Below, piece after piece: positions 1 through 23,173 of a stretch of 64,000 nt of DNA (the first letter of the stretch is position 1; the number at the start of each line of letters is the position of its first letter). This stretch comes from Chitinophagaceae bacterium (GTDB lineage Bacteria; Bacteroidota; Bacteroidia; Chitinophagales; Chitinophagaceae), in NCBI GenBank assembly GCA_016719015.1, contig JADKAZ010000006.1, positions 101,835-165,834 on the forward strand, in the 5' to 3' direction. The notes below the pieces were generated by a model. It saw only the letters and a list, made by a program, of their open reading frames with translations. It did no database searches and was not told the origin of the DNA. Made by a program: the position numbers and the translations under genes.

Positions 1-387
1 CTGATTGGAATGGCCAATAAAGTCATAGACCAATTCAATGGTGAAATTCCGATGACGGTAGATGAACTGGTGCAACTCCCCGGTGTAGGAAGAAAAACAG
101 CCAACGTTATTACTTCAGTAATTGACCGGCAACCCAACATGGCCGTGGATACACATGTTTTCCGGGTTAGTAAACGTATCGGCCTTGTTCCGCAAACAGC
201 CTCTACTCCGTTAGCCGTAGAAAAAGAATTGATTAAAAATATTCCCGAATCTCTCATACACAAAGCACATCACTGGTTAATACTACATGGCCGTTATGTT
301 TGTGTTGCCAGGAATCCCAGGTGTGAGTCATGTGGTTTACAACAGGCCTGCAGATATTTTCAACAAACAAAACCTGAGTATAATTAG
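1..387 (+). CDS. nth: Endonuclease III, 5'-partial
   Basis: HhH motif LVQLPGVGRKTANV, VDTHVFRV and C-terminal Fe-S motif C-x6-C-x2-C-x5-C; the frame is open from base 1. Confidence 0.95.
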   Translation: MIGMANKVIDQFNGEIPMTVDELVQLPGVGRKTANVITSVIDRQPNMAVDTHVFRVSKRIGLVPQTASTPLAVEKELIKNIPESLIHKAHHWLILHGRYVCVARNPRCESCGLQQACRYFQQTKPEYN

Positions 388-848
388 CAGGTAAATACGG
401 TGCAACCCGGGTTATCAAGGGCTGGCCCAGGACAACAAGGCTGAGAAATTAATATTGAAAATGTGGCCATTAACGCCACTCGTATTTCTTTTACAACCGG
501 GTGGCAGAGATAATATTCAAAATAATTCACTGTTTCAGGTAGTAAAAATACTGGCTAGCGGTTACCTATATTATTGATATATGAAAGTCAGCCTCCCCCG
601 GCACCTGCTTTATTAGCTACAAGACAAATTATTCAGAAAGTGTTGAATATTATGTAGATAAAGTAAAGAGAAAACTGAAATACCAGGAGAGCTATTTCCT
701 TTTAAAAAACAATAATTAAAAATGACCAAAGGCTTTTATCCTAAATTTTTTATTACTACTTTGGCACTCCCAATCCCCTGAATACCCTTCGATCCTCCCC
801 CTCTGACAAAACCCTACTCTATTTTTATTAAGTAAATTTTGTTTGAGG

Positions 849-1763
849 ATGAGAAAACTACTTGCAATAGCTCTGGGATGTACCCTTTTTGGACAATCAT
901 CAAAAGCCCAGTATTATTTTTATAATGATAAGTATTACGAAAATGCCGTCGTATTTGAGGTAGGTGTAACCGGTGGTGTGATGAATTCACTGACGGATCT
1001 GGGGGGCAAACAGGGAATCGGCAAAAACTTCATTAAAGATTTGAGGTGGAAAACAGCAAAAGCCAGCTATGGCCTTTATGTTGCTGCTAACTATATGGAT
1101 AAACTAACCCTTAGGTTAGAAGGAACGTTTGGCCAGGTTATAGGGTATGATAGTATTCTCAAAAATGTGGCGGCAACTACCAGCGGCCGGTATGAAAGAA
1201 ATCTAAGTTTTAAAAGTAAAATTTCAGAGGTTCAACTGGCATTGGAAGTGCATCCACTCATGTTTGGCAATTTTGATGACAGGGATCCTGCCTTACTTTC
1301 TCCCTATGGAATTATCGGTGTAGGCTATTATTCCTTTGACCCAAAGGCAAAACTCAACGGACAATGGTATTCCCTTCAGCCGCTCCGGCTGGAAGGGCAG
1401 GGTTTTAAAGAGTATCCTGACAGAAAACCCTACAAGCTCAATCAGCTTAATATATCAACAGGAATGGGTCTTAGGTATCAATTATCATCATTATTAAATG
1501 CGAGACTGGAATTTGTACACCGGATTTTGTTTACCGATTATCTTGATGATGCCAGTACTGGTTATGTTAACCCGGCACTTTTCAGTAACTATCTTTCTCC
1601 CAACAGAGCCGCCATAGCTCAGCAATTATTTGACAGAAAGGCTGAAATCACCCCGGGAGATGGGTCTAAAGCACAAGATCAACGGGGTGACCCAAAAGAC
1701 AATGATGCTTTTTTTACCATCCAATTTAAGATTGGTATTACGCTGGGCCGTCAAAAAAGGTAA
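849..1763 (+). CDS. Bacteroidota outer-membrane beta-barrel protein (DUF6089/PorT-like)
   Basis: Signal peptide ending AQ, amphipathic beta strands, RNLSFKS and RGDPKDND motifs. Confidence 0.7.
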   Translation: MRKLLAIALGCTLFGQSSKAQYYFYNDKYYENAVVFEVGVTGGVMNSLTDLGGKQGIGKNFIKDLRWKTAKASYGLYVAANYMDKLTLRLEGTFGQVIGYDSILKNVAATTSGRYERNLSFKSKISEVQLALEVHPLMFGNFDDRDPALLSPYGIIGVGYYSFDPKAKLNGQWYSLQPLRLEGQGFKEYPDRKPYKLNQLNISTGMGLRYQLSSLLNARLEFVHRILFTDYLDDASTGYVNPALFSNYLSPNRAAIAQQLFDRKAEITPGDGSKAQDQRGDPKDNDAFFTIQFKIGITLGRQKR

Positions 1764-1788: not shown

Positions 1789-1821
1789 AAAAGCCGGGTT
1801 GCTAAATGCAGCCCGGCTTTT
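1789..1821. terminator. Intrinsic terminator
   Basis: AAAAGCCGGG...CCCGGCTTTT inverted repeat after the stop codon. Confidence 0.75.
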
Positions 1822-1946: not shown

Positions 1947-4337
1947 ATGCAATTCGGAAACTTACTTTTTGATGAATCGCTGTTCAACAGCCGCCTTTGC
2001 TTTTCACCGTTAGTAAAAGCATTAAAGAAAAACATTGCCGAGGGTAACCCTGGTATGAAAAAACTTTATGGTCATGTAGTGCAGGAGTTTGAATCCTATC
2101 CGGAACTGATGAACACTATTTCCGATCTCGATATCCTGCTCCCTCACTCAGAACTGATTGAAGAATTACTATCTGCCGTTTTTCCTCCAACGACAGCTAA
2201 CTTTATGTATGGTGTGTCTTTACCCTTCAAACACCAGGCTGTATATGCTTCGCCCCGATTTAAATCAATGCTGAAACCTGGCTCTAATGAAATAAATGTA
2301 CCTAACGGACAACCGGGAACCAATCTTAGCGAGGAAAAACTTCAGTTTGCTTACGGTCTGATATTAAAAAAATACCTGGGTGTCAATAGCCCCGAATCAT
2401 CAAGGTCTATTCATCCCTACCCCGATAAGGAAACCGGGCTTACCCGTTACCTCGAATTACGTATTGATGCCCGGTTTATCGATGTCAATCCTATGGATGA
2501 AATGCCCCAACTGCCAGAAAGCATTTTAAATCAACAGACCAATAATATCATGACAATGGCAGAGCTGATGGAAAAAATACCATTAGAAAAATTCGTCTTT
2601 GAAGGTGTTTCTGTACTTCGGGTAAATGATGTAACCGAACAAGAGGTAATCAACCAGATTAAAAACCGGTTGTTGGATATCAACGCTTTTTCTGATGCAG
2701 CTGTTTACACAGAACTGGAAACCTATATCCAAAGTCTAATTGGTATAAAGGATTTAACCATTGGCATCACTCCTTTTTTTAAGATTAACAACCACTACGT
2801 TTATTCTGATTTACATAATAACAATAGTATCCTGTTCCGGCATTTTCATTCCTCTTCCGAGAAAGATGAAATAAGTGATTATTGTAAACTGCTGTTTCGT
2901 GACAGTGACCAGCCCCTTTTATTCGAAACACTGAACGAACAGTCGCTGAGTGATGTACAATGTTTGCAATATTATCATCTCGAAGGTGCCAGAAGCTTAA
3001 TTATTTGCCCGTTGAAAAATAAAAGTGGGATTATTGGTATGCTCGAGGTAATGTCCACTAAAAGCAAGCAGCTGATACCAGGATATATAAGCAAAATAGA
3101 ACCTGCTATTCCATTATTCACACTCGGTTGTGAAAAAAGCCTGGAGGACCTTAATAATGAAGTGGACCGGGTTATAAAGAAAAAATTTACAGCTGTACAA
3201 CCAGCAGTAGAGTGGAAATTTACTGAAGCCGCATTAAACTACATCGTAAAGAAGCATGAAAAGGAAGATGTAAAGATTGATCGCATTGCCCTTAATGATG
3301 TACATCCTTTATATGGCGCTATTGATATACGCAATTCTTCCACCGCCAGGTCCCATGCCATACAATTAGATATTGTAGAGCAACTCGAACTGGCGCAAAA
3401 AGTGATTAAAAAGGCACAGGCAACTATGCCATTCCCTTTATTACAGGAAATAGAATTTAAAATTGATAAATTCATTATTTCTGCTTCGGATGTATTGCAA
3501 TCCGGCGAAGAACTGAGTATACAGGACTTTTTACAGGGACAGGTAGTGGGAATGTTTAATCATTTGCACAATACCGAACCTTCAATGAAAAACGAAATTG
3601 AACATTATTTTTCAGCCCTTGATCCGCAAATCGGGATGCTGTATCACCACCGCAAAGAGTATGAAGAAAGTGTATCACGGATAAATGATACCCTGGCCCG
3701 TTATATTGACAAAGAACAGATTGCAGCCCAAAAAGTATATCCGCATTATTTTGAGCGGTATGTAACGGATGGGCTGGAGTTTAATATTTATATGGGACAG
3801 GCCATTTCGCCCCGTAAAAAATTTGATGAAATATACCTGCGAAACTTAAAAATGTGGCAGCTAACTGTACTTACAAAAGCTGCAAGGGTTACGCATGAAT
3901 TAGAGAAGGAGCTTAGCCATCCACTGCGAACCACACAATTAATACTATCGCATGGACAGACACTTTCTATTCTATTCCGTACAGAAGAAAGGAAATTTGA
4001 TGTGGATGGAGCTTATAATATCCGCTATGAAATTGTGAAAAAAAGAATTGACAAAGCCCACATAAAAAATACTAATGAGCGGTTAACACAACCTGGCAAA
4101 ATTGCTATTGTATATTCCCAATCAAAAGATGCAGCAGAGTATACCGAGTATATTGAGTTTTTGCAAAATAAAAAATTGCTGAAGCCCGGTATCGAAAATC
4201 ATGACCTCGAAGAATTGCAGGGAGTCGTTGGTCTTAAAGCACTACGGGTAGATGTTAACTTCGACGATCTGCCGCAAGGAGAAAAAACAGTGACCCTTTC
4301 AAACACCACTTCTGAACAATTGATTGGTGGTAAATAA
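1947..4337 (+). CDS. GAF-domain protein with putative cryptic class III cyclase-like C-terminus
   Basis: GAF-like segment (SLIICPLKNKSGIIGMLEV) followed by DIRNSS, YVTDG, FDVDGAYN, QPGKIAI and ELQG motifs. Confidence 0.75.
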   Translation: MQFGNLLFDESLFNSRLCFSPLVKALKKNIAEGNPGMKKLYGHVVQEFESYPELMNTISDLDILLPHSELIEELLSAVFPPTTANFMYGVSLPFKHQAVYASPRFKSMLKPGSNEINVPNGQPGTNLSEEKLQFAYGLILKKYLGVNSPESSRSIHPYPDKETGLTRYLELRIDARFIDVNPMDEMPQLPESILNQQTNNIMTMAELMEKIPLEKFVFEGVSVLRVNDVTEQEVINQIKNRLLDINAFSDAAVYTELETYIQSLIGIKDLTIGITPFFKINNHYVYSDLHNNNSILFRHFHSSSEKDEISDYCKLLFRDSDQPLLFETLNEQSLSDVQCLQYYHLEGARSLIICPLKNKSGIIGMLEVMSTKSKQLIPGYISKIEPAIPLFTLGCEKSLEDLNNEVDRVIKKKFTAVQPAVEWKFTEAALNYIVKKHEKEDVKIDRIALNDVHPLYGAIDIRNSSTARSHAIQLDIVEQLELAQKVIKKAQATMPFPLLQEIEFKIDKFIISASDVLQSGEELSIQDFLQGQVVGMFNHLHNTEPSMKNEIEHYFSALDPQIGMLYHHRKEYEESVSRINDTLARYIDKEQIAAQKVYPHYFERYVTDGLEFNIYMGQAISPRKKFDEIYLRNLKMWQLTVLTKAARVTHELEKELSHPLRTTQLILSHGQTLSILFRTEERKFDVDGAYNIRYEIVKKRIDKAHIKNTNERLTQPGKIAIVYSQSKDAAEYTEYIEFLQNKKLLKPGIENHDLEELQGVVGLKALRVDVNFDDLPQGEKTVTLSNTTSEQLIGGK

Positions 4338-4360
4338 CCTCCATTTTTGATTAAAAAAAT

Positions 4361-4386
4361 AAAGCCAGCTCTTTCGAACTGGCTTT
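4361..4386. terminator. Bidirectional terminator between convergent genes
   Basis: AAAGCCAG-N10-CTGGCTTT. Confidence 0.7.
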
Positions 4387-4412
4387 ATAATTATTATTAT
4401 GGAAAGGAAATA

Positions 4413-7001
4413 TTAGAATCTCCAACCCAAACTTACCAATGGTATTTTATCTTCTTTAGAGATAGCATACGAAGCAGTAATTAACAACCGGCGGAGTGGT
4501 GAAAACCAGATACCACCTCCGTAACCGCTGAAGAATTTTTTGTCGTTATCCTCATCTACCCATACTCTTCCTGCATCAATAAAAGCAATAATACCAAACG
4601 CAGCAGGGAAAAGATAGGTTTTGAAATTCGCTAAGCGAAGGCGCATTTCAGCCTGGTTATAGAATTTGGACTTGCCGGCAAATCTTTCTCTTCTAAAACC
4701 TCTTAAGTTATCATCTGAGCCAAGATATTGAGCATGGAAAAACTCGAATCCTTCACCCAGTGTAATACCCCCACCAGTGCGGTTTGCAAATGTCAGGCGG
4801 TCAGGTATCAGGTTAAAGTAAAAAGCAAAATCACTGTTGATCTGTGTCACTTTATCATAGCTGTTATCACCCAATCCCTTAAGTGCTTTAACAGTACTTA
4901 CCCAGTTAATACCACTCTCCGGCAGTATTTTATTATCCCTTGAATCAACGATCAAAGAAAGCCTTGCACCAACATAGGATTGTCTTTCAAAAATAGTGGC
5001 AGGATTCAGGCCGGCAGCCACAGTGTTCAATACCACATTTCTTACCGCATTCAATTTTTCATCTTTGTCCATGCTATACCACTGGAAGGTGGGGCCAAAA
5101 GTCAGCATCACTTTATCGCTGAACCGCTGACGTATTTGTAATGAAACATCGCCCAAGTCATAACGAATTCTGTAATACCTGAATCTTCTTGAATTGACAC
5201 CTCCCGTGTTAGTGCCGATATTTTTATCATACACACTGTTCACCCCGTAGCCAAAGAAATTGGTAGTATTATTCGGGCCTTTATATTCAACATCGGTTAA
5301 CAGGTCAGTCTTATCTCCCAACGCTGAAATAAATTCATTATTATACCGGAGATTTACAGCTTTTGTAGAAAAAGCATACGTCCCTTTGAACTGATGTAAA
5401 GTCTTGTAAGGTACTTTACGGAAGCCATGGCGGATGTATTTGAATGTTGGCCCGATAGATACTCCATCATCCGGATTGAACCCCAGTGTCAGAAAAATTG
5501 ACTGGAACGGATACTTGTAAGAAAGTCTGTCAAATTTATTGACAGCACTATCGTTAGACATTTTGGTGGTAAAGCGGCCGGTAATTTTATTTCCACCGTC
5601 CAGCTTATCATAAATTATTGCACCAGACTGTTTGGAGCCGGGATTTTCAAAGACATCTTCTCCGCCACCACCAATCAGTCTCACCTTTATTTTATCATTA
5701 TCGCCATGCATTACAAATTTGTCCTCTCCGTCCATTCCATAAATTCTTAACTCCTTAGTCACTAAAGGGAAAAATTTTCTTTCATACATTTTAGTACTTT
5801 GTCCTCCGTCTTTATCTATTTTATAAACCTGTACCAAGGCAGTGCCATCACTGTTACGGGTAATATCATACAGCTCTTTTTTATCACTTCCTGTTATACT
5901 TACGGTTTGCGAAATGAAACGATAATACTCCATAACCTCAGCAACCAGGTTATTACGACGGGCTTTTAAGGTTTCAGCAATTTTTCCGGCAGAGATTGAA
6001 CGAATTTCATGTGGTTGCTGAGCCATAGCCCTGTCAATCACCTCATCCGTCATTTGGGAAACAAGTTTTTCAGCTGTAGTTTTCCAGTCTTCTTCGGTAA
6101 GTTGGGTTAAGAAAAATCTATCAAGGTTACGGGCTGCAAAGTTGAAACGGCTGATGCTCTTTGCCGCCGGTTTAAATCCTTCCAACTGCGGAACTAATGA
6201 ACGGCCCTTAATTAATCCAGGTAATATGCCCTGGTTGATGTAGAAAGCCTGGTCACGGTCTTTTGCTATGGGATAAAAAATTTTGCCTTTGCCATTCGGG
6301 CTGTCATAAGCACCCCATATCCACTGGTCTTCGTGACGATCCAGATCCATTACAAACATATCAAGCACCCTGATTTTCAATAGGGCCAGCTGGTCAACAT
6401 CGTTATCGTTATCTTTTTCTAACTTGTCCGCCACTTCTTCTGAATCCCAACCCTTTTTTGTAGAATCAGGCAGCCTTTCTTCAAAAAGGGCCAGCATATT
6501 GGCAAAATCCTCCCGGTACTCACCAAGTTTAGGATCATCGGCAATATGAACAAGTTTTACATCACCATGTGGTATACCTGCAGCTTTTGCGAGTACATTT
6601 ACTGATAATGCAGCATACGGATATGATGCAGAAACACCATCGGATACAAGATCTGCAGCCGCATCGCTCTGCAAATCACCGGGCAATGTCTTACTGGTAA
6701 TAAATTTTGTTATGGAACGAAGTGTGTATTGCCTTCCGGAGGGGTCTTCTACCCTTAGCGATTTGGTTTGCTTACCACCACCTCTTTTAACGGGGGTTAA
6801 CCCTCCGTGAGATGTTGACAATTTTAAAACGGGTGCTTTTACGGGAGTATTCCATTCCGTACGGTAATTAGCACCCATCCAAGAGGTCCTGCTCCTGGAT
6901 GTACTGAAATTCCCTCCCTTGGAGGCTACCGAATCAGTCTGGGCATTACCTTGGGTTATGGCAATAAAAAAAGATACAAAAAAAACAAAAAGCAGTCTCA
7001 T
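4413..7001 (-). CDS. Omp85 (BamA/TamA-like) barrel protein with N-terminal atypical kinase-like domain
   Basis: Signal peptide; GGGKQTKSL, DLDRHEDQW and DRDQAF motifs; GGxGxD repeats; LRGFRRERF loop-6 motif; C-terminal GWRF. Confidence 0.8.
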   Translation of the reverse strand: MRLLFVFFVSFFIAITQGNAQTDSVASKGGNFSTSRSRTSWMGANYRTEWNTPVKAPVLKLSTSHGGLTPVKRGGGKQTKSLRVEDPSGRQYTLRSITKFITSKTLPGDLQSDAAADLVSDGVSASYPYAALSVNVLAKAAGIPHGDVKLVHIADDPKLGEYREDFANMLALFEERLPDSTKKGWDSEEVADKLEKDNDNDVDQLALLKIRVLDMFVMDLDRHEDQWIWGAYDSPNGKGKIFYPIAKDRDQAFYINQGILPGLIKGRSLVPQLEGFKPAAKSISRFNFAARNLDRFFLTQLTEEDWKTTAEKLVSQMTDEVIDRAMAQQPHEIRSISAGKIAETLKARRNNLVAEVMEYYRFISQTVSITGSDKKELYDITRNSDGTALVQVYKIDKDGGQSTKMYERKFFPLVTKELRIYGMDGEDKFVMHGDNDKIKVRLIGGGGEDVFENPGSKQSGAIIYDKLDGGNKITGRFTTKMSNDSAVNKFDRLSYKYPFQSIFLTLGFNPDDGVSIGPTFKYIRHGFRKVPYKTLHQFKGTYAFSTKAVNLRYNNEFISALGDKTDLLTDVEYKGPNNTTNFFGYGVNSVYDKNIGTNTGGVNSRRFRYYRIRYDLGDVSLQIRQRFSDKVMLTFGPTFQWYSMDKDEKLNAVRNVVLNTVAAGLNPATIFERQSYVGARLSLIVDSRDNKILPESGINWVSTVKALKGLGDNSYDKVTQINSDFAFYFNLIPDRLTFANRTGGGITLGEGFEFFHAQYLGSDDNLRGFRRERFAGKSKFYNQAEMRLRLANFKTYLFPAAFGIIAFIDAGRVWVDEDNDKKFFSGYGGGIWFSPLRRLLITASYAISKEDKIPLVSLGWRF

Positions 7002-7345
7002 GGTTGCAGGTTTAATTGATTAAATAGTATCCGGGGCAGTAACTCCCGGCGGCAAAAGATACAATTTTTTGAAAATTACACAAATAATAACATATCTGTA
7101 AAAATTTTGAAGGTAAAATGAACCAGCCGAGTCTAATCATGTTTTAGTGCTAAGCATATTATTCTCTTTACATTCGCATATTTTTTACGCTGTATGATAT
7201 TCCAGAGAAAGTTTTATGTAAATTGAAAACTTTCTTTGGTAGGTGAATATCTCACCACCTTAAAATAGGTTGTTGTGGTTTTACAATTTTAAATTACTGG
7301 TGAGGAAGTTGTGCTTTAGCCAGGTAGTCTTATTAACGGGAGGTA

Positions 7346-10300
7346 ATGAAAAAATATATTGTTCTGATTAGTGGGTTGTTCTTGTTGAATCTGACACTTA
7401 AAGCCCAGGAAGATACAATCATTCAGCGTATTGTGCTTATTGGCGATGCCGGGCAACTGACCAATGGCATCCACCCCGTTGTTGACGCTGTTAGAAATAA
7501 TATCAAATTAGATAAAAAAACTACTGTTGTATATCTCGGAGACAACCTTTACAAAGTTGGATTACCGGATGACCAGTCAGCAGCTTATAAAGCATCAAGA
7601 GCTGTACTTGATTCACAACTTTCTGTAGCCGATGGCACAGGCGCCAAGGTTTATATGATACCCGGCAACCATGACTGGGATAACGGCCGTCGGGGTGGTT
7701 ACGATGCTATTATTCGTCAGCAGTTATATGTTGATTTTATAAATAAGCGTAATGTCAAATTTCTGCCGGAAGATGGTTGTCCCGGACCGGTAGAAGTAAG
7801 CCTGAGCAATGATGTTACACTGATAATATTCGACAGTCAGTGGTGGATTCACCCGTTTGATAAACCGGAAATTGAATCTGATTGCGCCTGCAAAACAAAA
7901 GATGAGCTTGTATCAAAAATCGGAGACATCGCCGCCCGCAATTCAAAAAAATTAGTCCTGCTGGCCTCTCACCATCCCTTTAAAAGTAACGGGATGCATG
8001 GTGGTTTTTATACATTTAAGCAGCATATCTTTCCGTTAACAGATATGAAAAAAAATTTGTACATACCATTACCGGTAATAGGTTCCATTTACCCGATAGC
8101 CAGAAGCGTTTTTGGAACGCCGCAGGATTTAAAACATCCTAACTATGCTAATATGGTGCAGGAGATAACCAAAGTTGTAAAACCTTCACCCTATGTTGTT
8201 TTTGTTTCCGGGCATGATCATAACCTGCAACATATTAAAGAGGATGGACTTAATTACATCGTAAGCGGCGGCGGTTGTAAGCAGAACAGGACATCGCAAG
8301 CAAGCAATAGCCTTTATAATTCTTCCAACACCGGTTTCTCCGTAATGGAGGTATCCAAAAATAAAAATGTTACTATTGATTTTTATACCGTTTCGGATAG
8401 CGGTGTAGCTACAAAAACATATACCAACACTCTATTCAACTTTAACAAGCTGCCTGACGAAGCCCTGGATACAAATGCTCAAATCGTTGATGACCCTTTC
8501 TTAAAATATAAAGACACTTTTACCATTGCCGCCAGTAAAAATTTTCCGCTGATAAAAGGAATGAAGAAATTTTTTATGGGTCAGAATTACCGGGCTGAAT
8601 GGTCTACACCGGTAAACATGAAAGTCTTCAATATTTCAACTGAAAAAGGCGGTATGAAGGCCGTGGGTGTCGGTGGAGGTAATCAAACAAAATCCTTGCA
8701 ACTGGTAGATAAAAAAGGGAAGGAGTGGGTGCTTCGCAGTATGAATAAAAACCCCTCCAAAGCCATTCCTGAGGCATTCCGGGGCTCTTTTGCAGAGGAT
8801 TTGGTGGCTGAACTCAGTTCCGCTTCTCATCCTTACGGTGCACTTGCATTTCCTGTGTTGGCAAAATCATTGGATTTAACCGTTGCAAAGCCTGAATTAT
8901 TTTTTGTTCCCGACGATCCTGCTTTAGGATTTTGGAGGCCACTGTTTGCCAATAATGTTTGTATGCTGGAGGAAAAACATGCCCCACCGGATGGAAGTGA
9001 TACAAAAACAACTGCTAAGGTCTTTAATAAAATGCTGGATGAAAATGACCACCTTCCGGACCAGCCTATTGTATTAAAGGCAAGACTATTAGATATTATT
9101 ACCGGCGATTTTGACAGGCATTTTGATCAATGGAGATGGGGAACTGTTGATACAGGTAAAGGAAAAATTTATTACCCCATACCAAGGGACAGGGACCAGG
9201 CTTTCTTTTACTCTGATGGTGCCATATTAAAAGCGGTAAGTGACGGAACCTTACCTTTCCTCAAAGGTTTCAGAAAAGATATTCCAAAAGTGAATTGGCT
9301 GGGTTACACAGCGAGAGATTTTGACCGTATCTTTTTGACAGACCTTGATCAGGGCGACTGGGAAAAAACAATAGCTGAAGTGCAACAAAAAATCAGCGAC
9401 TCGGTAATCAGGGCAGCAGTAAAAAAAATGCCGTCTGAAATTTTCCCTATCCGGGGTGAAACGATTATCAAAAAAATGATCAGCCGCCGGGACTTGCTCC
9501 CAAAGGAAGCAATGTCTTATTACAAGTTTATTTCAAAAAAAGTAAACGTAATGGGCAGTAACCAACGGGAATATTTTAAAGTAAGTAATTACGGTGAAGG
9601 TTTACAGGTAAAAGTATATGCCCGGTCAAAAGGGAATGACACCAATTTTGTGATGTATAACAGAATATTCAACCCCTCTGTTACCCGTGAGATAAGATTA
9701 TATGGAATGAATGATGATGATCTTTTTGAAATAGAAGAAAATGCAAAATCACGGATCAAGATCCGCATTATAGGCGGAAAGGGTAATGATACATTTGATA
9801 TCCGTGGCCAAACAGAAGCGTTGTTATATGATTTAAAAACAGATGGCAATTTTATAAAGAATAGCAGCCATGCAAAAAATCGTTTCTCACTCGACCCTCC
9901 CGTCAACGATAAAAATGTACTTGGCTTTAATTATAACACAACCAAAGTACCCCTGATTAACCTGCATTACAATTCGGATGATGGTCTCCTGGTGGGTGCT
10001 GGTATTGCAAGACGAACCTATGGCTTCCGCAACCTACCTTATGCATCAGACCAAAAATTTGGTATTTTATATGCACCCAACCGTAAGGCCTTTCAACTTA
10101 ATTACCGGGGAGAGTTTAACCATATTACCCGTACTACAGACCTTATATTAAAAGGGAATTTTTCAAACCCGGCATTAAGAAACTTTACAGGTCTTACTAA
10201 TAATCCACAGGTTGATAAAAACAGGAATTTCAATTATTACCAGACCCGTTTCCGGTCATTGGAGCTGGAAGCCTTAGTACGGAAACGTTTTTTTGAAAAA

Positions 10301-11002
10301 TTACACCTGATGATCGGCCCTTATTTTTATCACTACAATAATAAGTATAGTGATAATGCAGGGTATGTGCTGGGCAAGTACCGGGAATTACAACTTGATT
10401 CCGCAGATATTTTTAGCAAAAAGAATTATGCCGGAGGTAAGCTGGCACTTTTAGTAGACAACCGCAATAAAGAATTTTTCCCTACCCGTGGATTATATTG
10501 GTATACGGAAGTTACAGGTGCTACAGGTATTTCCAAAGGCAGTGATGGGTATGTAAAGTATACAACCGACATGGCGATTTATGCCAGCTTCAGGGATCCG
10601 GCAAACCTGGTAGCCATATTGAAATTTGGTGGCGGACGTATTTTCAGTAAAAATTTTGAGTACTTCCAGGCATTAAGCATTGGAGCTAATAGTAACCTGA
10701 ATGGATTCCGGAAAAACAGATTTTCCGGCAATTCAACACTTTATACCGGTATTGAGTTAAAAATAAAATTGGCTGATGTTAACTCCTTTATTTTACCCGG
10801 ATCGTTCGGCATCACTGGTTTTTATGATCTTGGCCGTGTATGGGTGAAAGGGGAACAATCCGGTAAATGGCATGGAGCATTTGGCGGAGGTCTTTATTAC
10901 ATGCCTTTTAACATATTTGCCATTAATGCTACGGCCGGATTTTCTGATGGTGAAAAAATGTTGAACTTCACCCTTGGTACAAAGATTAATCTCACTTATT
11001 GA
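7346..11002 (+). CDS. Metallophosphoesterase + kinase-like + Omp85 barrel fusion protein
   Basis: GDAG, GDNLY, GNHD, SHHP and GHDH motifs; DFDRHFDQW; LNGFRKNRF; C-terminal aromatic residue; paralog of 4413-7001. Confidence 0.85.
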   Translation: MKKYIVLISGLFLLNLTLKAQEDTIIQRIVLIGDAGQLTNGIHPVVDAVRNNIKLDKKTTVVYLGDNLYKVGLPDDQSAAYKASRAVLDSQLSVADGTGAKVYMIPGNHDWDNGRRGGYDAIIRQQLYVDFINKRNVKFLPEDGCPGPVEVSLSNDVTLIIFDSQWWIHPFDKPEIESDCACKTKDELVSKIGDIAARNSKKLVLLASHHPFKSNGMHGGFYTFKQHIFPLTDMKKNLYIPLPVIGSIYPIARSVFGTPQDLKHPNYANMVQEITKVVKPSPYVVFVSGHDHNLQHIKEDGLNYIVSGGGCKQNRTSQASNSLYNSSNTGFSVMEVSKNKNVTIDFYTVSDSGVATKTYTNTLFNFNKLPDEALDTNAQIVDDPFLKYKDTFTIAASKNFPLIKGMKKFFMGQNYRAEWSTPVNMKVFNISTEKGGMKAVGVGGGNQTKSLQLVDKKGKEWVLRSMNKNPSKAIPEAFRGSFAEDLVAELSSASHPYGALAFPVLAKSLDLTVAKPELFFVPDDPALGFWRPLFANNVCMLEEKHAPPDGSDTKTTAKVFNKMLDENDHLPDQPIVLKARLLDIITGDFDRHFDQWRWGTVDTGKGKIYYPIPRDRDQAFFYSDGAILKAVSDGTLPFLKGFRKDIPKVNWLGYTARDFDRIFLTDLDQGDWEKTIAEVQQKISDSVIRAAVKKMPSEIFPIRGETIIKKMISRRDLLPKEAMSYYKFISKKVNVMGSNQREYFKVSNYGEGLQVKVYARSKGNDTNFVMYNRIFNPSVTREIRLYGMNDDDLFEIEENAKSRIKIRIIGGKGNDTFDIRGQTEALLYDLKTDGNFIKNSSHAKNRFSLDPPVNDKNVLGFNYNTTKVPLINLHYNSDDGLLVGAGIARRTYGFRNLPYASDQKFGILYAPNRKAFQLNYRGEFNHITRTTDLILKGNFSNPALRNFTGLTNNPQVDKNRNFNYYQTRFRSLELEALVRKRFFEKLHLMIGPYFYHYNNKYSDNAGYVLGKYRELQLDSADIFSKKNYAGGKLALLVDNRNKEFFPTRGLYWYTEVTGATGISKGSDGYVKYTTDMAIYASFRDPANLVAILKFGGGRIFSKNFEYFQALSIGANSNLNGFRKNRFSGNSTLYTGIELKIKLADVNSFILPGSFGITGFYDLGRVWVKGEQSGKWHGAFGGGLYYMPFNIFAINATAGFSDGEKMLNFTLGTKINLTY

Positions 11003-11069
11003 TACGGCATGATAATTACAGTATAAACTGTAAAAAGGCTAATTCTTCCCTTACGAAAGCATTCAAAAA

Positions 11070-12173
11070 ATGAAGCCCTCACATATTGCATTACCCAGAC
11101 GTTCTGCCGTAAAAAAAAATGAATTAAAACGCATTTTGGCAATTGCTATAGCATGGACAGTTATCGATTTCCTCATTTTTATTATCCGGTTTGCCACAGA
11201 TAATTATGCCCCTAAATATGAATCAACCCATGCCGGATCGCTGAAAGCAGTTTTTCTCCGGGAACTAAATGTCTTCATATTTAGTTTTATAATCGGCTAC
11301 TTTCTTATTATTCTTTTAAGAAATTTACTGAATGATAAATCGCCCTGGTTAAATCTTCTTATCAAAACATTACTACTTGTCGTTGTGGCCATTGCCATGA
11401 ATTTTTTTATTTACTTTACCTATAGCCTGGTTTTTGAAGGTAAATCTGTCGGGGATGCCTTCTATAAGTTTGTAGAAAATACATTTCGCAGAAAATGGCT
11501 GTTGGAAAAAATGCCGGAATGGGTATTATTATTTATATTAACACAGCTTACCTTAGAAATTAATCAAAAATATTCACAAGGTGTTTTTTTAAATATCATT
11601 GTAGGCAAGTATCTCCAGCCAAGAAATGAAAAGAGAATCATTCTTTTTATTGACCTTAAAAATTCAACCCCCATTGCAGAAAAACTTGGGCATACAGAAT
11701 ATTTTAAATTTATCCGAGATGTTATTTATTGCCTCGCAGCGGGGATTGCCGAATATGACGGACGGGTATATCAGTATGTAGGGGATGAAATTGTGGCCTG
11801 GTGGCCCCACACAGAGCAGAATGCAAAAAAATGTGTCAATTCTCTTATCGCTGCAAGAAAGATTTTTAACCATAATGCCGAACATTTTAAACGGGGCTAT
11901 GATATTATTCCGGAATACAAAGTCGGCATCCATTCGGGTAATGTAACCGTAGGCCAGGTAGGAATTGCAAAAAAAGATTTAGTAATCAGCGGCGATACTA
12001 TAAATACGGCAGCCCGTATCAGAAGTGCCTGTACTGAGCTCAACCAAAAGTATCTTGTATCCAAAGAATTTATTACACTACTCAACATGAAAGATTGGCA
12101 AACTGAAAGTGTGGGTCTGGTAGACTTAAAAGGGAAAAATGAGGACCTTGAATTATTTACATTAAAAATTTAA
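11070..12173 (+). CDS. Membrane-anchored class III adenylate/guanylate-type cyclase
   Basis: About 4 N-terminal TM helices; FIDLKNST, YVGDE, VGIHSG, GDTINTAAR and DLKGK motifs. Confidence 0.9.
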   Translation: MKPSHIALPRRSAVKKNELKRILAIAIAWTVIDFLIFIIRFATDNYAPKYESTHAGSLKAVFLRELNVFIFSFIIGYFLIILLRNLLNDKSPWLNLLIKTLLLVVVAIAMNFFIYFTYSLVFEGKSVGDAFYKFVENTFRRKWLLEKMPEWVLLFILTQLTLEINQKYSQGVFLNIIVGKYLQPRNEKRIILFIDLKNSTPIAEKLGHTEYFKFIRDVIYCLAAGIAEYDGRVYQYVGDEIVAWWPHTEQNAKKCVNSLIAARKIFNHNAEHFKRGYDIIPEYKVGIHSGNVTVGQVGIAKKDLVISGDTINTAARIRSACTELNQKYLVSKEFITLLNMKDWQTESVGLVDLKGKNEDLELFTLKI

Positions 12174-12198
12174 TCTATCTTACCATGTCAAACCCTAC

Positions 12199-12885
12199 AT
12201 GAAGCGTATTAATTTTTGGTTCAAAAGAAAGATAATTATACAGTGGCTTCTCGCTTCTGCTTTACTGCTTTCAGTACTTGTGGTGTGGCTGGTTTTTTTT
12301 TCTGAAAGAAACTATTTAGATCAAAAAATTTTTTCTCTGATTGAACCGCATAGGTCCGAAATCCGTACCCGTTTGATGCTTGCTGTTTCATTCCTTGGTA
12401 ATCATAAGTTTTTAATACCTGCCAATCTTTTGCTGATCACTATTTTTTTATTTTCAAAAAATAAATGGGAAGCTGTACAAGTGGCTGCTGTTTCATTAAG
12501 CAGTCTACTCTTTATGTCGCTTCTCAAAAATTCATTTCGTCGTTCCCGGCCTGATAATCCACTGGTAGATGGAATTACCAATTTTAGTTTCCCAAGCGGT
12601 CATGCATTTATGAGTGCTGCTTTTTACGGCTTGCTCATCTGGTGGGCCGCAACCTATATTAAAAATGGATGGCAACGGAGGCTGGTTATTCTTTTTCTGA
12701 TGATGCTGATAATTATTATAAGCTTCAGCCGCATATATCTCAGGGTTCATTACGCTTCAGACGTAGTTGTTGGGTTGTGTATCGGATTTGTCTGCCTAAG
12801 CTTATCACTCGCCATCTTGCAACGATTACAGAAAAAGAAGAAACTAAAAAAAAGGCGTTGGCTAATTTTTATAAACAAACTTTAG
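12199..12885 (+). CDS. PAP2-family membrane phosphatase
   Basis: KxxxxRxRP, FPSGH and SRIYLxVHYxxD motifs. Confidence 0.9.
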   Translation: MKRINFWFKRKIIIQWLLASALLLSVLVVWLVFFSERNYLDQKIFSLIEPHRSEIRTRLMLAVSFLGNHKFLIPANLLLITIFLFSKNKWEAVQVAAVSLSSLLFMSLLKNSFRRSRPDNPLVDGITNFSFPSGHAFMSAAFYGLLIWWAATYIKNGWQRRLVILFLMMLIIIISFSRIYLRVHYASDVVVGLCIGFVCLSLSLAILQRLQKKKKLKKRRWLIFINKL

Positions 12886-13037
12886 AATAGTCACAATTCC
12901 TTTACCACCTTCATTAGGCAAACCCGTTTTCAAAGACTTCCTTCCGGATGTCAGGCACTACTCAGCTTGTGTAGGTTTTGCTTGAGCTTATTAGTTCATT
13001 GATAATATAATAACCCGTAATCCGGCCTTAAAGAAAC

Positions 13038-13901
13038 CTAAGGTTTATATACAAAACGAAGGATGGTAGACCTGGCAGTAACTCCCTCATTAGAAATATA
13101 CATATCACCGTTAGATTTAAATGTCAATCCTTCTGGCTGTGGAAACATCTTTTTGCCGAGTTCAAATACTGATTCTACTTTTCCATTAAGATCAGCGATA
13201 ACCAGTAAATTGGCTGCTGATGAAATAATAAATAATTTTTTCAGTATTGGATGAATGCCCGCTGCTGATGGTTGAAGTTTAGATGTTTTATGTGGTGAAA
13301 GTTTCTCCACTTCCGCGGCATCAATGGTATAAACAGGGTTAACATCAAAGCCTGTTGAGTCTGGATAAAAAGCAAATGCACTGACAGATTTCTTATCATC
13401 CATAGCACAGTTCTTGCAAATAATAATCAATGCTTTGCGGGATGTATCGGCATACATTGTTTCAAAGTCATTGGTACCAGAAATACCGATTTTACCGGCT
13501 TCCACCCCCCTGATACCTCCGGCACTATCTCTTATTAATTTAGTGATCATACCATCGCTACGCAAAACATATGGCACTCCTTTGTATATCGCAATATCTT
13601 CGTAGTCTCCTTTAGCACCAAAAGAATACTCGCCACCCGGTTTGATGGCCTTTGTTTCTCTATCAAGTAAAAATAATTTACCCGACTCATCATAATGGGC
13701 CAGAAACTCATCCCTGTCTCTATCCCAGGCCAGCCCTGATATTTCTTTCAACTTCAGATCAAGTTTATGCGTTTGAACTTCTGAAAAATTATAGTGAGGA
13801 GGTGATTTAATGATCTTCGTTTTTTGCTTACAAGCCATCGTCATCAAAACACATAAAGTCAGCAGGATAATTAAGTTTACCCGAAAATTTAAAAATCTCA
13901 T
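13038..13901 (-). CDS. SdiA-regulated-domain (beta-propeller-like) lipoprotein
   Basis: Lipobox MAC; LKEISGL, DYEDI and QPEGLTF motifs; ATG at 13901 preferred over 13928. Confidence 0.7.
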   Translation of the reverse strand: MRFLNFRVNLIILLTLCVLMTMACKQKTKIIKSPPHYNFSEVQTHKLDLKLKEISGLAWDRDRDEFLAHYDESGKLFLLDRETKAIKPGGEYSFGAKGDYEDIAIYKGVPYVLRSDGMITKLIRDSAGGIRGVEAGKIGISGTNDFETMYADTSRKALIIICKNCAMDDKKSVSAFAFYPDSTGFDVNPVYTIDAAEVEKLSPHKTSKLQPSAAGIHPILKKLFIISSAANLLVIADLNGKVESVFELGKKMFPQPEGLTFKSNGDMYISNEGVTARSTILRFVYKP

Positions 13902-13944
13902 TCTTCTTATTTTGTTTAAATTTATCAAAAGTTATCTTTATAGC

Positions 13945-15242
13945 ATGTCCGACAATCAAATACTAGCGTTACAGGAAGCCCAGGCTCTCGTAAATGATCT
14001 ATTAACAAACAAACTTAGTAAAAATATTAAGTTTCATACACTTCAGCACACTCAGGAAGTGGTAGCTGCCTGCCAAAGTTTAGCAGATTATCACCAATTA
14101 CCCGAAGACGACCGTTTTGCTCTTATTCTGGCGGCCTGGTTTCATGATACCGGCTACACTGGCGGTGAGGCAAAGGATCATGAAGCATTAAGCATAAAAC
14201 TGGCTACTGATTTTTTAACTATTCATTCTGCCAGTACAGAAGTGAGAGACAAAGTAATTGGTTGCATCAATGCCACCCGTATTCCTCAAAGCCCTGACAA
14301 CCTTCTCGAAAAAATTATTTGTGATGCAGATTTATTTCACCTGGGCACCGATGATTTTAAAGAGAAAAGCCGCCTGTTGAGAGAAGAAATAAAAGAATTT
14401 GGAGAAATAGATATATCAAAAAAAGATTGGAGAAAAACTAATATCCGCTTCCTGGAAGGACATAAATACTTTACTGACTATGGTAAAGAAAAATTACAAC
14501 CAATAAAAGACCAGCACCTGGCTGAACTAAGACAAAAAGATAAAAATACCGATGAAATGAAACCTGCTAAAACCGAAAAGATTGAAAAAACAGATAAAGC
14601 GGATAAAAAAGATAAACCAAAGGAAAAGGAAAGTCCGCCATACTAACTCCCGAGGCCGAAGAAGCTAAACGGAAAAAAGATAAAGAAAAAGAAGCGGACA
14701 GAAGTATTGCAACGGTGTTCCGGATTATGGCTAACAACCATATGGCACTTAGCCAGATGGCAGACTCCAAAGCCAATATACTTATATCGGTGAATGCCAT
14801 TATTCTTTCTATTCTTATCGGCAATCTGATTGATAAACTGCACACTGACCCGAACCTGCAAATTCCGCTTGCATTGATTGCCGTGGTTTGTGTGGCATCA
14901 ATAGTATTTGGTATACTGGCTACCCGGCCCAATGTTTCCAGTGGCAAATTTTCGCATGAAGATATTGCCAGCAAACGTACCAATCTGTTATTCTTTGGTA
15001 ATTTTCACAACGCAAGCCTGGAAGATTATAGCTGGGGAATGACAGAAATGCTGGGCGATAAAAACTATATGAACTCCAGCATGATCAAAGACAATTATTT
15101 TCTCGGAGTGGTACTTGCCAAAAAATACAAATATCTCCGTATTGCGTATAATATTTTCATGTATGGGCTTATTTTATCCATACTGGCTTTTGTGGTTGCG
15201 TCTATGCTACCCGAAGCTACCGAGGTCTATACGGCTGGATAA
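13945..15242 (+). CDS. HD-domain + PycTM/DUF5706 fusion, split by one apparent 1-bp deletion near 14630
   Basis: HTLQHT, WFHDTG and DADLFHLG motifs; adding one A at 14630-14632 joins it in frame to FRIMANNHMALSQMADSKANILISVN, LLFFGNF and KKYKYLRIAY. Confidence 0.8.
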
Positions 15243-15310
15243 ATACAAACTAAACCGCCGGTAACGATAAGGAATAAAACTCTCGATGTATTTGTAAGTA
15301 AAAAATAATT

Positions 15311-15339
15311 AAAACAGGTCAGCTTTGCTGACCTGTTTT
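15311..15339. terminator. Intrinsic terminator
   Basis: Perfect 13-bp stem AAAACAGGTCAGC-TTT-GCTGACCTGTTTT. Confidence 0.85.
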
Positions 15340-15433
15340 AATTTTATGCTATCCCATTGCTGCCCCCTTAATTACGAAATCTTTTACAGCGGAATGATAA
15401 CAATTGAGCAGCCCAAATTCTAAAATCATTCAT

Positions 15434-15487: not shown

Positions 15488-16069
15488 ATGTCAATTAATA
15501 TCTTAGAAACGGTACAACAAAATTTAGGCTATCCTGCTTTACAGAAGATAGATCCCAATACCCAGCAAGTACTAGAGAATGATAAAACACCCAATCAACT
15601 CCACGTCAGCCAGGCCGCTATACCTGCCGTTTTAACTGGTTTCTACAGGTATGTTCAATCTGATGAGGGTGCGGAAAATTTTTTACGGGGTAATAATTCC
15701 TCAAGTTGGTTAAATAAAATTTTTGATAAAAATAAAATCGAAGTTGTTCAAACAATTGCAACTTATACCAACCAATCAAAGCTTGACCCCTTGGCAGAAA
15801 TGGAGGTAATTGCAAACGAAACAGTGAAAGTGGTAAAGAATATCCTGGGAGCGGATGCCTCGATAAAAGAAGTAAAAACTTATTTCAGCGGGCAAAAAAA
15901 CAACATTCTCCTTTATCTGCCTGCTGTATTAAATATAGGAGAACTATTAAATGATTCTACACTGGATGATAAAACGAATAAAATGGAAGGCCCCCTCTCC
16001 AGTCTGATGCAAAATATAGGCTCCGCCTTTTCTAAACCAGTAAGTGACGAAGAAACAAAAAACTTATAA
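15488..16069 (+). CDS. Hypothetical protein
   Basis: 193-aa ORF with normal spacing; no motif recognised. Confidence 0.7.
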   Translation: MSINILETVQQNLGYPALQKIDPNTQQVLENDKTPNQLHVSQAAIPAVLTGFYRYVQSDEGAENFLRGNNSSSWLNKIFDKNKIEVVQTIATYTNQSKLDPLAEMEVIANETVKVVKNILGADASIKEVKTYFSGQKNNILLYLPAVLNIGELLNDSTLDDKTNKMEGPLSSLMQNIGSAFSKPVSDEETKNL

Positions 16070-16199: not shown

Positions 16200-17636
16200 T
16201 TATTCCTTAATACTATTAGATTCTTCGTAATGCCTGATTTTATTATACAGGGTTTTCCGGTCAATTTTTAAAGCTTCTGCAGCTTTGGTTTTATTAAACT
16301 TTACCTGCTTCAGCACATTCATAATCATTTCATATTCTGCCTGGGAGGCAGCCACCTTAAGATCAGCAGGTGGTTGCTTATGTGCATCAAATGCATTTTC
16401 CTGGTTTATTACAGGTGGAGGTGCAGAAATGGGTTTTAATGGATTCCCGATTATTTCCCACGGAAGGACATTTGTTGTAATTTTTCCGCTTGCTGCCAGG
16501 AGTCCTGCCCTCCTTATAACATTGCGGAGTTCCCGTAAGTTGCCCGGCCAGTCATAGTTTAAAAACAGCTGCATTACTTCTTCATCAAACCCTTCGAATT
16601 TTTTATTTAATTCAGCACAGGTTTTCTTTAGAAAAAAATCAGCAAACATTGCAATGTCTTCCTTTCTTTCCCGCAAGGGCGGTATGGATATTGAAAACTC
16701 ATTAAAGCGGTGGTATAAATCTTCCCTGAATTTTCCATTGCGATAAGCCTCCTGGAGATTTTCATTGGAAGCAACGATTACTCTTGTATCGGTATCGATG
16801 TCTTTATTACTGCCTACTCTTTTAAATTTACGTTCCTGGATTACTCTTAATAAAGTAGCCTGTACATCAAGTGGCAGGTTAGATACTTCATCTAAAAAGA
16901 GAGTACCCCCGTCTGCCACTTCAAATATTCCTTCTTTATCAGTTAATGCACCGGTAAACGACCCTTTGACATGACCAAACAATTCACTGGCAGCAAGTTC
17001 TCTCGATATAGTACCGCAGTCAACCGCAATAAAAGGCTTATTGCTTCGGTTACTGTTTTGATGAATCGCTTTGGCCATCACCTCTTTACCTGTTCCGCTT
17101 TCGCCGTACAGTATTACACTGTAATTGGTGGGTGCCACCAGCTCAATTTGATTGTATAATTCTATTGTGCGGGGTGAAATACCTAAAAGTACTTCCTCCG
17201 GATCAATAGTAAAGTATTTCCCCGCCGAGCTTTGCGGAATTGAAATATTAGTAGCATCTGCTTTAATTAATGGGGGAGAATCATCTAACCCTTTGTTGAT
17301 CAGATTAATTAATTCTTCTGGAATTAAAGGTTTAGTAATGTAATCAAAAGCACCATAACGCATTACTTCTACCGCCATCTTCACATCGGAATAACCGGTA
17401 ATAATAATGACTATCACATCAGGATTAATACTCTTGATCTTCTGCAACACTTTTCTTCCATCCATATCCCCCAGCCGGAAATCACATAGTACCAGATCAA
17501 ATTTGCTCTCGTTGAATTTCTCTAATCCTTTGTGTCCGGTGTGAGCTGTTTCCGTTTCAAAACCCTTACGTTGCAAGAATTGACTGAGCAACTGGCACAT
17601 ATCCAAATCATCATCTATAATCAGTATTCTCCTCAT
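16200..17636 (-). CDS. Sigma54-dependent response regulator (NtrC-type bEBP)
   Basis: REC domain, GESGTGKE, ELFGHVKGSFTGA, WPGNLREL, Fis-type HTH. Confidence 0.95.
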   Translation of the reverse strand: MRRILIIDDDLDMCQLLSQFLQRKGFETETAHTGHKGLEKFNESKFDLVLCDFRLGDMDGRKVLQKIKSINPDVIVIIITGYSDVKMAVEVMRYGAFDYITKPLIPEELINLINKGLDDSPPLIKADATNISIPQSSAGKYFTIDPEEVLLGISPRTIELYNQIELVAPTNYSVILYGESGTGKEVMAKAIHQNSNRSNKPFIAVDCGTISRELAASELFGHVKGSFTGALTDKEGIFEVADGGTLFLDEVSNLPLDVQATLLRVIQERKFKRVGSNKDIDTDTRVIVASNENLQEAYRNGKFREDLYHRFNEFSISIPPLRERKEDIAMFADFFLKKTCAELNKKFEGFDEEVMQLFLNYDWPGNLRELRNVIRRAGLLAASGKITTNVLPWEIIGNPLKPISAPPPVINQENAFDAHKQPPADLKVAASQAEYEMIMNVLKQVKFNKTKAAEALKIDRKTLYNKIRHYEESNSIKE

Positions 17637-17816: not shown

Positions 17817-17831
17817 TGGCAAGTCTTTTGT
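17817..17831 (+). promoter_or_regulatory. Sigma54-like -24/-12 box
   Basis: TGGCAAG-TCTT-TTGT upstream of the single-domain response regulator. Confidence 0.45.
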
Positions 17832-23148: not shown

Positions 23149-23173
23149 CATTTTATTATGCAGGCATAAAATA

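Follow-up and report, generated by a model that had tools for sequence, protein, structure and literature searches.

A conserved gene neighborhood of Bacteroidota linking a membrane class III cyclase and an HD-PycTM protein to polyphosphate kinase and outer-membrane Omp85 proteins

Introduction

To our knowledge, proteins with a PycTM domain are currently known solely as antiphage effectors. Here, we analyzed a 64,000-nt stretch of contig JADKAZ010000006.1 (assembly GCA_016719015.1) from a Chitinophagaceae bacterium, hereafter called the window (the whole stretch, to which all positions refer), in which a PycTM protein fused to an HD phosphohydrolase (HD-PycTM), a membrane class III nucleotide cyclase, and two outer-membrane Omp85 proteins lie in a block of seven genes. 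In the closest described systems, the transmembrane (TM)-type Pycsar and Pucsar systems, a class III cyclase is encoded near a three-TM (3TM) protein of family PF18967. A 2026 preprint describes the 3TM proteins of the PycTM/PucTM family as being of the pJV1-spdB3 type and as assembling into a hexameric cylinder, and it reports significantly faster evolution of immune cyclase clades compared with physiological outgroups (bioRxiv 10.64898/2026.08.12.744502).

The block shares with these systems the proximity of the two components, both of which are matched by PADLOC models, and the conserved cytosolic loop between the second and third TM helices. Unlike them, however, it encodes an effector with an N-terminal HD phosphohydrolase and a physiological-like cyclase with 3–4 N-terminal TM helices, is inherited slowly and vertically at a fixed site, is linked to polyphosphate kinase 1 (PPK1) and outer-membrane enzymes, and has no defense-island context that we could see around it. 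As described below, this block represents a rearranged, lineage-specific version of a Bacteroidota gene neighborhood that is ancient and has been passed on vertically. Literature searches on PycTM, polyphosphate kinase, Omp85-phosphatase, and Bacteroidetes Pho topics returned no description of this cluster; its component families are known, and we found no description of their assembly in the searchable literature.

Results

Recurrence of the gene set across Bacteroidota

An earlier reading of the same DNA (the original prediction) had proposed a functionally linked set of seven contiguous genes at 1947–15242. All seven are present there, and the coordinates and nearly every domain call held when compared with the open reading frames (ORFs) of the window and with Pfam and NCBIfam. 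The genes are as follows.

1947–4337, forward strand: G1, a cytoplasmic protein of 796 aa with tandem PAS/GAF-like N-terminal domains
4413–7001, reverse strand: KIN-Omp85, the paralog of the next protein, 862 aa (NCBIfam Omp85_fam, 1.8e−27)
7346–11002, forward strand: MPE-KIN-Omp85, 1218 aa (Pfam Metallophos, 2.5e−6; Omp85, PF01103, 6.3e−9)
11070–12173, forward strand: membrane class III cyclase, 367 aa (Pfam Guanylate_cyc, 1.1e−14)
12199–12885, forward strand: integral-membrane PAP2 phosphatase (Pfam PAP2, 1.4e−22)
13038–13928, reverse strand: SdiA-regulated (YjiK-type) beta-propeller lipoprotein, hereafter SdiA-like (Pfam SdiA-regulated, 1.8e−8)
13945–15242, forward strand: HD-PycTM, one gene that is split here into HD (13945–14646) and PycTM (14649–15242, +2 frame)

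The neighborhood was surveyed from two anchors. For the cyclase, one genome per species was scanned, giving 80 loci in which ORFs were called and compared with the window proteins by BLAST; most of these genome loci were from Chitinophagaceae, and the full-length HD-PycTM of Niastella was the query for HD-PycTM. The reciprocal scan covered metagenomes, with HD-PycTM as the anchor and hits ranked on a Cyclobacteriaceae sequence. The gene order of the window was found in close relatives of its species. In most Chitinophagaceae genera, the genes instead formed a tight same-strand operon of SdiA-like, MPE-KIN-Omp85, HD-PycTM, a gene for a protein of ~680 aa, and cyclase. The ~680-aa protein is PPK1, with all four PPK1 Pfam domains, and its gene lay between HD-PycTM and the cyclase in ~30 Chitinophagaceae loci. 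The operon of Niastella yeongjuensis (L047) had no PPK1 gene and consisted of four abutting or overlapping genes on the same strand: SdiA-like (4201–5058), MPE-KIN-Omp85 (5055–8705), HD-PycTM (8716–9969), and cyclase (9971–11080). Among 37 well-flanked cyclase loci, HD-PycTM and MPE-KIN-Omp85 were both present in 26, SdiA-like in 24, and PPK1 in 16. The cyclases of loci without those partners were distant homologs (≤37% identity).

The metagenomic loci anchored on HD-PycTM gave a similar gene set, arranged in many different ways: 18 were well flanked, and these contained MPE-KIN-Omp85 (13/18), SdiA-like (13/18), PPK1 (8/18), G1 (8/18), and the cyclase (5/18). The divergent pair of SdiA-like and MPE-KIN-Omp85 genes was directly upstream of HD-PycTM in 24 of 50 loci, and PPK1 was directly downstream of it in 16 of 45. 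G1 was accompanied by the phosphatase-less KIN-Omp85 (L117, L143, L144, L159–L161) and often by PAP2 too (L143, L144, L159–L161). The same gene set occurred in Cyclobacteriaceae (L068, L083); in the metagenome-assembled genome L068, the layout was divergent and comprised two cyclases, PPK1, MPE-KIN-Omp85, SdiA-like, and HD-PycTM. In Fulvitalea axinellae (Persicobacteraceae), the four-gene core was located on a 437-kb non-mobilizable secondary replicon. A gene for a histidine phosphatase of the SixA-like type (His_Phos_1) was found between HD-PycTM and PPK1 in a single metagenomic locus (L103:5342–5842).

Dozens of independent loci show the linkage in differing gene orders, which takes it beyond chance, and both anchored surveys together indicate that every gene of the window block is a recurrent member of the cluster. 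Its core is the SdiA-like lipoprotein, MPE-KIN-Omp85, HD-PycTM, the cyclase, and usually PPK1, with PAP2, G1, and KIN-Omp85 as accessories. The co-occurrence of GAF protein, HD-PycTM, and phosphoesterase-Omp85 in other Bacteroidota, which the original prediction had mentioned, is real in the HD-PycTM-anchored survey. Co-occurrence confined to this lineage would have refuted the original prediction; instead, although rearranged, the homologs occur together in many metagenomic lineages and in Chitinophagaceae, Cyclobacteriaceae, and Persicobacteraceae, which supports a functionally linked set. The predominance of Chitinophagaceae among the surveyed genome loci would fit a synteny inherited merely through the kinship of the genomes, without functional coupling. 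We give this explanation hardly any weight, because the linkage persists through at least six gene orders or orientations and is shared by the orders Chitinophagales and Cytophagales, even on the secondary replicon of Fulvitalea, and because the neighbors in loci missing the partners are unrelated genes.

The partnership with PPK1 had been missed earlier and could not have been known from the window alone, since PPK1 is absent there. Other ppk1-centered operons, such as ppk-ppx, likewise have PPK1 embedded in an operon, as in most Chitinophagaceae, and PPK1 adjoins HD-PycTM in the Cytophagales-type loci. They differ from the present cluster, in which PPK1 is paired with HD-PycTM and not with a Ppx/GppA exopolyphosphatase, a membrane cyclase and outer-membrane proteins are further partners, and the window form has no PPK1.

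Inheritance and chromosomal position

Co-inheritance was tested on 17 complete operons. The pairwise identities of the five operon genes correlated with one another (r = 0.70–0.87), and mean identities were 57% for HD-PycTM, 55% for the cyclase, and 60% for PPK1, indicating about equally slow divergence. The conspecific assemblies, L011, and Niastella all have nth upstream of the cluster, preceded by enolase where the sequence reaches that far, and the window itself starts inside nth; on the downstream side, at a greater distance, the window and Niastella share a pyruvate:ferredoxin-oxidoreductase-type gene. The cluster therefore keeps one chromosomal slot in at least three lineages. In the window, the pyruvate:ferredoxin-oxidoreductase-type gene is only a 223-aa fragment (23222–23893), compared with 618 aa for its Niastella counterpart.

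The slow co-inheritance, the fixed slot, and a TM-bearing, physiological-like cyclase favor a housekeeping role, and the sporadic, fast-evolving distribution of Pycsar-type defense was not what we found for this cluster. Of the two possibilities that had been raised for the block, a housekeeping relative of Pycsar or a phosphate circuit, either fits better than defense, given the slow vertical inheritance, the slot shared by at least three lineages, and the link to PPK1. A true abortive-infection system of the Pycsar/Pucsar type that has become fixed in these lineages, with the other genes as unconnected neighbors, would account for the matches of the cyclase to the PADLOC PycC model (1.3e−16) and of the effector to the PADLOC PycTM (2e−16) and Pfam PycTM (PF18967; 1.9e−34, full model coverage) models, for the name “Pycsar system effector family protein” given by NCBI to the Fulvitalea homolog, and for the adjacency of cyclase and HD-PycTM in Niastella. 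However, we consider such a system improbable: the genes are inherited vertically and as slowly as PPK1, occupy a conserved slot amid housekeeping genes, and include the same four or five non-defense genes whatever the gene order; the cyclase, with its TM sensor domain, resembles physiological adenylyl cyclases more closely than PycC; and in the window, the cyclase and HD-PycTM are two genes apart, one of those being on the opposite strand. Because the PADLOC models match both components, automated tools may label loci of this type as Pycsar, and if the role is indeed physiological, such clusters would be a likely source of false-positive defense calls in Bacteroidota.

HD-PycTM and its frameshift

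HD-PycTM is an inner-membrane protein that consists of an HD phosphohydrolase (Pfam HD, 1.3e−5), a Lys/Glu/Asp-rich linker, and the 3TM PycTM domain. Residues H35, H67-D68, H79-E80, and D127/D129 are invariant, so that the H...HD...D signature is present, and the cytosolic loop of PycTM (TNLLFFGN...KKY..R.AY), also invariant, is the most conserved portion of the protein. Matches of the HD part to PDEase models were only marginal (E ~0.3–0.8), which neither supports nor excludes its putative role as a phosphodiesterase that erases a cyclic nucleotide.

In the window, this gene is interrupted by a frameshift that the original prediction had not noticed. Upstream, the PycTM frame stays open as far as 14612, so that its beginning and the last part of the HD frame overlap. 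Through the exact G1 product, eight conspecific assemblies were obtained (exact-product look-ups of the window cyclase, the HD ORF, and the 1218-aa protein found no record), and HD-PycTM was called as a protein of 426 aa in all eight; the conspecific contig L081 likewise encodes it intact, with 426 aa. Compared with L081, an A-run at ~14623–14627 of the window is shorter by 1 nt. Within 20 kb, five 1-nt homopolymer indels relative to L081 were found (12831, 14623, 18571, 19358, and 20875); that at 12831, in an A-run, alters the C-terminal tail of PAP2, that at 14623 splits HD-PycTM, and two cut a CHASE3 histidine kinase gene (18313–19737, reverse strand) into three ORFs. All five are probably homopolymer errors of the window assembly. 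Because the gene is intact in eight conspecific assemblies and other homopolymer indels occur within the same 20 kb, HD-PycTM is probably a single gene whose frameshift in the window is an assembly error; a biological origin, as a programmed frameshift or a pseudogene, was set aside in view of the same five indels. The window also differs from L081 by an in-frame 18-nt insertion at 14584–14601 (~EKTDKA) within the GATAAA-like repeat that encodes the HD/PycTM linker, which is a linker-length polymorphism among conspecific strains.

Membrane class III cyclase

The cyclase has 3–4 N-terminal TM helices, which form a domain of no recognized family, followed by a catalytic domain at residues ~185–367. 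As in CyaB, the Rv1625c-type cyclases, and OaPAC/bPAC, the two metal-binding Asp residues (D195, D239) and the transition-state Asn and Arg (N312, R316) are present, and all four are invariant in 13 homologs with 60–100% identity. The family profile is closest to OaPAC, bPAC, and CyaB (7e−16 to 1e−10) and matches the solved Pycsar cyclase PycC (7r65) at only 1.6e−4, suggesting from sequence comparison that the enzyme is nearer to physiological adenylyl cyclases than to the solved Pycsar cyclase. In class III cyclases, the canonical base-selecting pairs are Lys-Asp/Thr for ATP and Glu-Cys/Ser for GTP. Alignment to OaPAC places Gln235 at the adenine-selecting Lys position and Val305 at the Thr/Asp position of the window enzyme. 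This invariant, non-canonical Gln/Val pair, in place of the purine-selecting Lys-Asp/Thr, and the unassigned TM domain distinguish the enzyme from the cyclases named above, and since the pair follows neither canonical form, its product is unpredictable from known rules.

A second type of membrane cyclase, of 420–460 aa with ~6 TM helices, was found in Cytophagales-type clusters (L083, L084, L089, L120, L131, L132, L145, and L068:18940–20199). It likewise has Gln at the Lys position (xNQIMGDG) and lacks the Asn of the GDxxNxxxR motif.

Outer-membrane Omp85 proteins

The two kinase-like Omp85 proteins are paralogs, as had been proposed, sharing 35% identity over 826 aa (E = 4e−157; residues 410–1211 of MPE-KIN-Omp85). 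MPE-KIN-Omp85 contains, in order, a signal peptide, a metallophosphoesterase (MPE) domain at residues ~25–360, a kinase fold at ~400–730, a GGxGxD beta-roll-like segment, and an Omp85 barrel at ~860–1218. KIN-Omp85 has a signal peptide, the atypical kinase-fold domain, a short GGxGxD beta-rich segment, and the Omp85 beta-barrel, without the phosphatase domain. The MPE domain is of the purple-acid-phosphatase type, as phmmer searches of the PDB matched purple acid phosphatases, and its five metal-ligand blocks (GDxG, GDxxY, GNHD, HH, and GHxH) are all present and essentially invariant in 25 MPE-KIN-Omp85 orthologs.

The middle domain shared by both proteins had no Pfam match and no detectable membership in a sequence family. 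An AlphaFold2 (AF2) model of it, built from an 18-sequence alignment that included stand-alone homologs of ~485 aa, had a predicted local distance difference test (pLDDT) score of 83 and a predicted template modeling (pTM) score of 0.84, and Foldseek against the PDB ranked CtkA of Helicobacter pylori first (1.3e−7, probability 1.0), followed by Rio2, PI4KII-alpha, and CotH. GGGxQT, DxDRHxDQW, and DRDQ, essentially invariant in the 25 orthologs, are placed in the model as the kinase glycine loop, catalytic loop, and metal-binding Asp. The model, the matches to atypical kinases, and the invariant motifs together uphold the description as kinase-like: the domain is predicted to fold as an atypical kinase, and its catalytic activity is likewise a prediction. 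It resembles the CtkA, CotH, and PI4KII-alpha-like kinases in its best structural matches and in having a glycine-rich loop and the DxDRHxDQ and DRD motifs in the expected places, and differs from them in lacking recognizable family membership and in being fused to an Omp85 barrel, or else occurring as a stand-alone secreted protein of ~485 aa. The gene neighborhood of a stand-alone 454-aa homolog was uninformative.

The closest described architecture is that of PlpD, a type Vd patatin-Omp85 protein, which likewise combines a signal peptide, N-terminal enzyme domain(s), and a C-terminal Omp85 barrel in one chain. In contrast, the passenger here is a purple-acid-phosphatase-type domain with a kinase fold, and Pfam found no POTRA domain in the Omp85 proteins even at E up to 5, a search that a divergent POTRA may escape.

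G1, PAP2, and the SdiA-like lipoprotein

G1 had been described as GAF/cyclase-like, and only the GAF part of this description stands. The window sequence alone had no match in Pfam or the PDB; among 21 diverse homologs, 14 matched Pfam GAF_2, and the family profile matched PDB GAF domains at 9.5e−5 over residues ~235–400. Sequence profiles thus indicate a GAF domain that is recognizable at the family level only. The G1 family had no cyclase match in Pfam or the PDB, and when the G1 and cyclase families were compared by hhalign, the probability was 0.3%, so that the assignment as a cyclase-like protein was rejected. The AF2 model of G1 was weak (pLDDT 56), and therefore only the resemblance of its N-terminal part to PAS/GAF modules (DosP and phytochrome PAS-GAF in Foldseek) was used. 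The C-terminal half (~400 aa) is highly conserved and has no known homolog. In a search of 1.84 billion representatives, the family comprised 1712 clusters at 50% identity, all of ~790 aa.

The PAP2 phosphatase contains the motifs KxxxxxxRP, PSGH, and SRxxxxxHxxxD, as read from its translation, and has weak NCBIfam similarity to undecaprenyl pyrophosphate, phosphatidylglycerophosphate, and lipid A 1-phosphatases. It is also encoded directly downstream of the cyclase in L013, L014, L017, L018, L027, L034, L045, and L056. The SdiA-like protein has, by eye, a lipobox-like sequence (...MTMAC) and a weak match to the Pfam Phytase-like family; its likely start is M10, at 13901, and it was called as a protein of 287 aa in the conspecific assemblies. 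Elsewhere, its gene is directly upstream of MPE-KIN-Omp85, which it overlaps or abuts in L047 and L016.

Transcription units and flanking genes

The block had been described as bounded by terminators. It consists of ~5 transcription units across both strands and is not a single operon. Three terminator-like hairpins mark its edges and interior.

1789–1821, forward strand: terminator-like hairpin at the left edge, downstream of a PorG-like gene (by eye)
4359–4388, either strand: bidirectional terminator-like hairpin between the convergent G1 and KIN-Omp85 genes (by scan; 13-pair stem and T-run)
15307–15343, either strand: strong bidirectional terminator hairpin at the right edge (by scan; 17-pair stem and T-run)

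The right boundary is thus confirmed by the terminator scan. The left hairpin, AAAAGCCGGG...CCCGGCTTTT, with a 13-nt loop and a T-rich tail after it, was recognized by eye only and was not called by the scan because the scan takes loops of only 3–8 nt. The cyclase gene is separated by 67 nt from MPE-KIN-Omp85 and by 25 nt from PAP2; these gaps suggest that the three genes, the only ones close enough, are probably co-transcribed.

Upstream, window positions 1–1763 contain the 3′ end of nth (endonuclease III) and the PorG-like type IX secretion system (T9SS) gene (843–1763; NCBIfam T9SS_PorG, 7e−23). Between the right terminator and the next gene lies a 193-aa ORF (15488–16069) with no match in Pfam, NCBIfam, or PADLOC, conserved in close relatives only (L001, L081). 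It is followed at 16200–19737 by genes for a sigma54-dependent NtrC-type response regulator, a stand-alone receiver, and the CHASE3 histidine kinase. Several unrelated loci (L018, L059, L150, L015) likewise have an NtrC-type regulator immediately beside the cluster, and the adjoining response regulator is a candidate regulator of the cluster. Positions 20000–27000 of the window have few long ORFs, and further frameshifted genes are likely there. The sole Rfam match of the window at the gathering threshold was one tRNA gene (49643–49714). The remainder is ordinary chromosomal content, with housekeeping genes around the cluster.

Discussion

The cluster is a variant of the cyclase-effector second-messenger modules, Pycsar-like in parts and unlike Pycsar in its distribution and evolution. 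Our analysis confirms the existence of the block and supports its earlier interpretation in part, in which the scheme of writer, eraser, and effector is conjectural. We put at about even the chance that the cluster is a physiological module for phosphate/polyphosphate-envelope signaling, not an antiphage system, working by a mechanism that we infer as follows. The TM domain of the cyclase would sense a membrane or envelope cue, upon which a cyclic mononucleotide would be made. By analogy with the Pycsar/Pucsar TM effectors, the conserved cytosolic loop of PycTM may read this nucleotide. The regulated output would then be the activity of the HD phosphohydrolase or of a pore, coupled to the status of phosphate or of PPK1-made polyphosphate, and not cell killing. 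At the outer membrane, the phosphatase/kinase proteins and the propeller lipoprotein may perform or sense phosphoryl chemistry on envelope or external substrates. What the comparisons themselves show is the linkage, which outlasts rearrangement in at least three families, the co-inheritance, the folds, and the catalytic motifs, which are kept in every enzymatic domain of the cluster.

Several observations weigh against this signaling mechanism. The cyclase was found within ~10 kb of HD-PycTM in only 5 of the 18 well-flanked metagenomic loci, and therefore the link to a cyclic nucleoside monophosphate may be an addition to the cluster and not central to how it works. Neither the 64 kb of the window nor the Niastella-type operon contains PPK1. 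The nearest solved relatives of the HD domain (2pq7 and YedJ) are uncharacterized hydrolases and not phosphodiesterases, and nucleotide binding by the HD-fused PycTM subfamily is argued from analogy. Finally, ATP is not known to be present in the place where the kinase-like domains would be located.

In the main rival explanation, compared with which a fixed defense system and pure synteny are less likely, the genes would be co-regulated and mechanistically separate, like those of a Pho regulon, and would serve phosphate scavenging and envelope-lipid remodeling. Its members would be the acid phosphatase of the outer membrane, the propeller as a phytase-like protein, PAP2, and, for storage, PPK1; PycTM would serve only for anchoring or oligomerization of an HD hydrolase, and the cyclase would be an independent regulator or a passenger. 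All the enzymes of the cluster handle phosphoryl groups, the weak Phytase-like match of the SdiA-like protein fits such a set, and the absence of a messenger link would explain the many HD-PycTM neighborhoods without a cyclase. Furthermore, many lipoproteins and phosphatases of Flavobacterium are induced by phosphate depletion, as is a PPK-like gene (PMC8115612). Nevertheless, we regard this explanation as rather unlikely, because the Chitinophagaceae cyclase abuts or overlaps HD-PycTM or PPK1 within one operon, because a cyclase recurs in the rearranged Cytophagales clusters, including the second type with Gln at the Lys position, and because the conservation of the PycTM cytosolic loop, the highest in HD-PycTM, is beyond the needs of an anchor.

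A bolder form of the signaling module would make the cluster the physiological source of the Pycsar/Pucsar cyclase-3TM pair, acting as a trans-envelope phosphoryl relay. At the inner membrane, HD-PycTM would form a hexameric pore or enzyme gated by a cyclic nucleotide, and the pore would handle phosphate or polyphosphate made by PPK1. The kinase-fold domains would phosphorylate envelope lipids or proteins from a donor other than ATP, such as polyphosphate, and the fused phosphatase domain would reverse this. We consider this proposal highly improbable.

Whichever mechanism applies, the cluster brings out a class of uncharacterized outer-membrane proteins that combine a phosphatase, a kinase fold, and an Omp85 barrel, and a uniform family of GAF proteins (~1700 clusters) with an unassigned output domain. 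Its hosts are soil and water Bacteroidota relevant for the turnover of organic phosphorus. The invariant Gln/Val pair turns the product of the cyclase into a concrete, testable question. If the physiological signaling module is correct, the PycTM module would have a use outside immunity, in a chromosomally fixed, slowly evolving pair with a cyclase that is connected to PPK1 and to outer-membrane enzymes, and such a pair would be a plausible evolutionary source of Pycsar.

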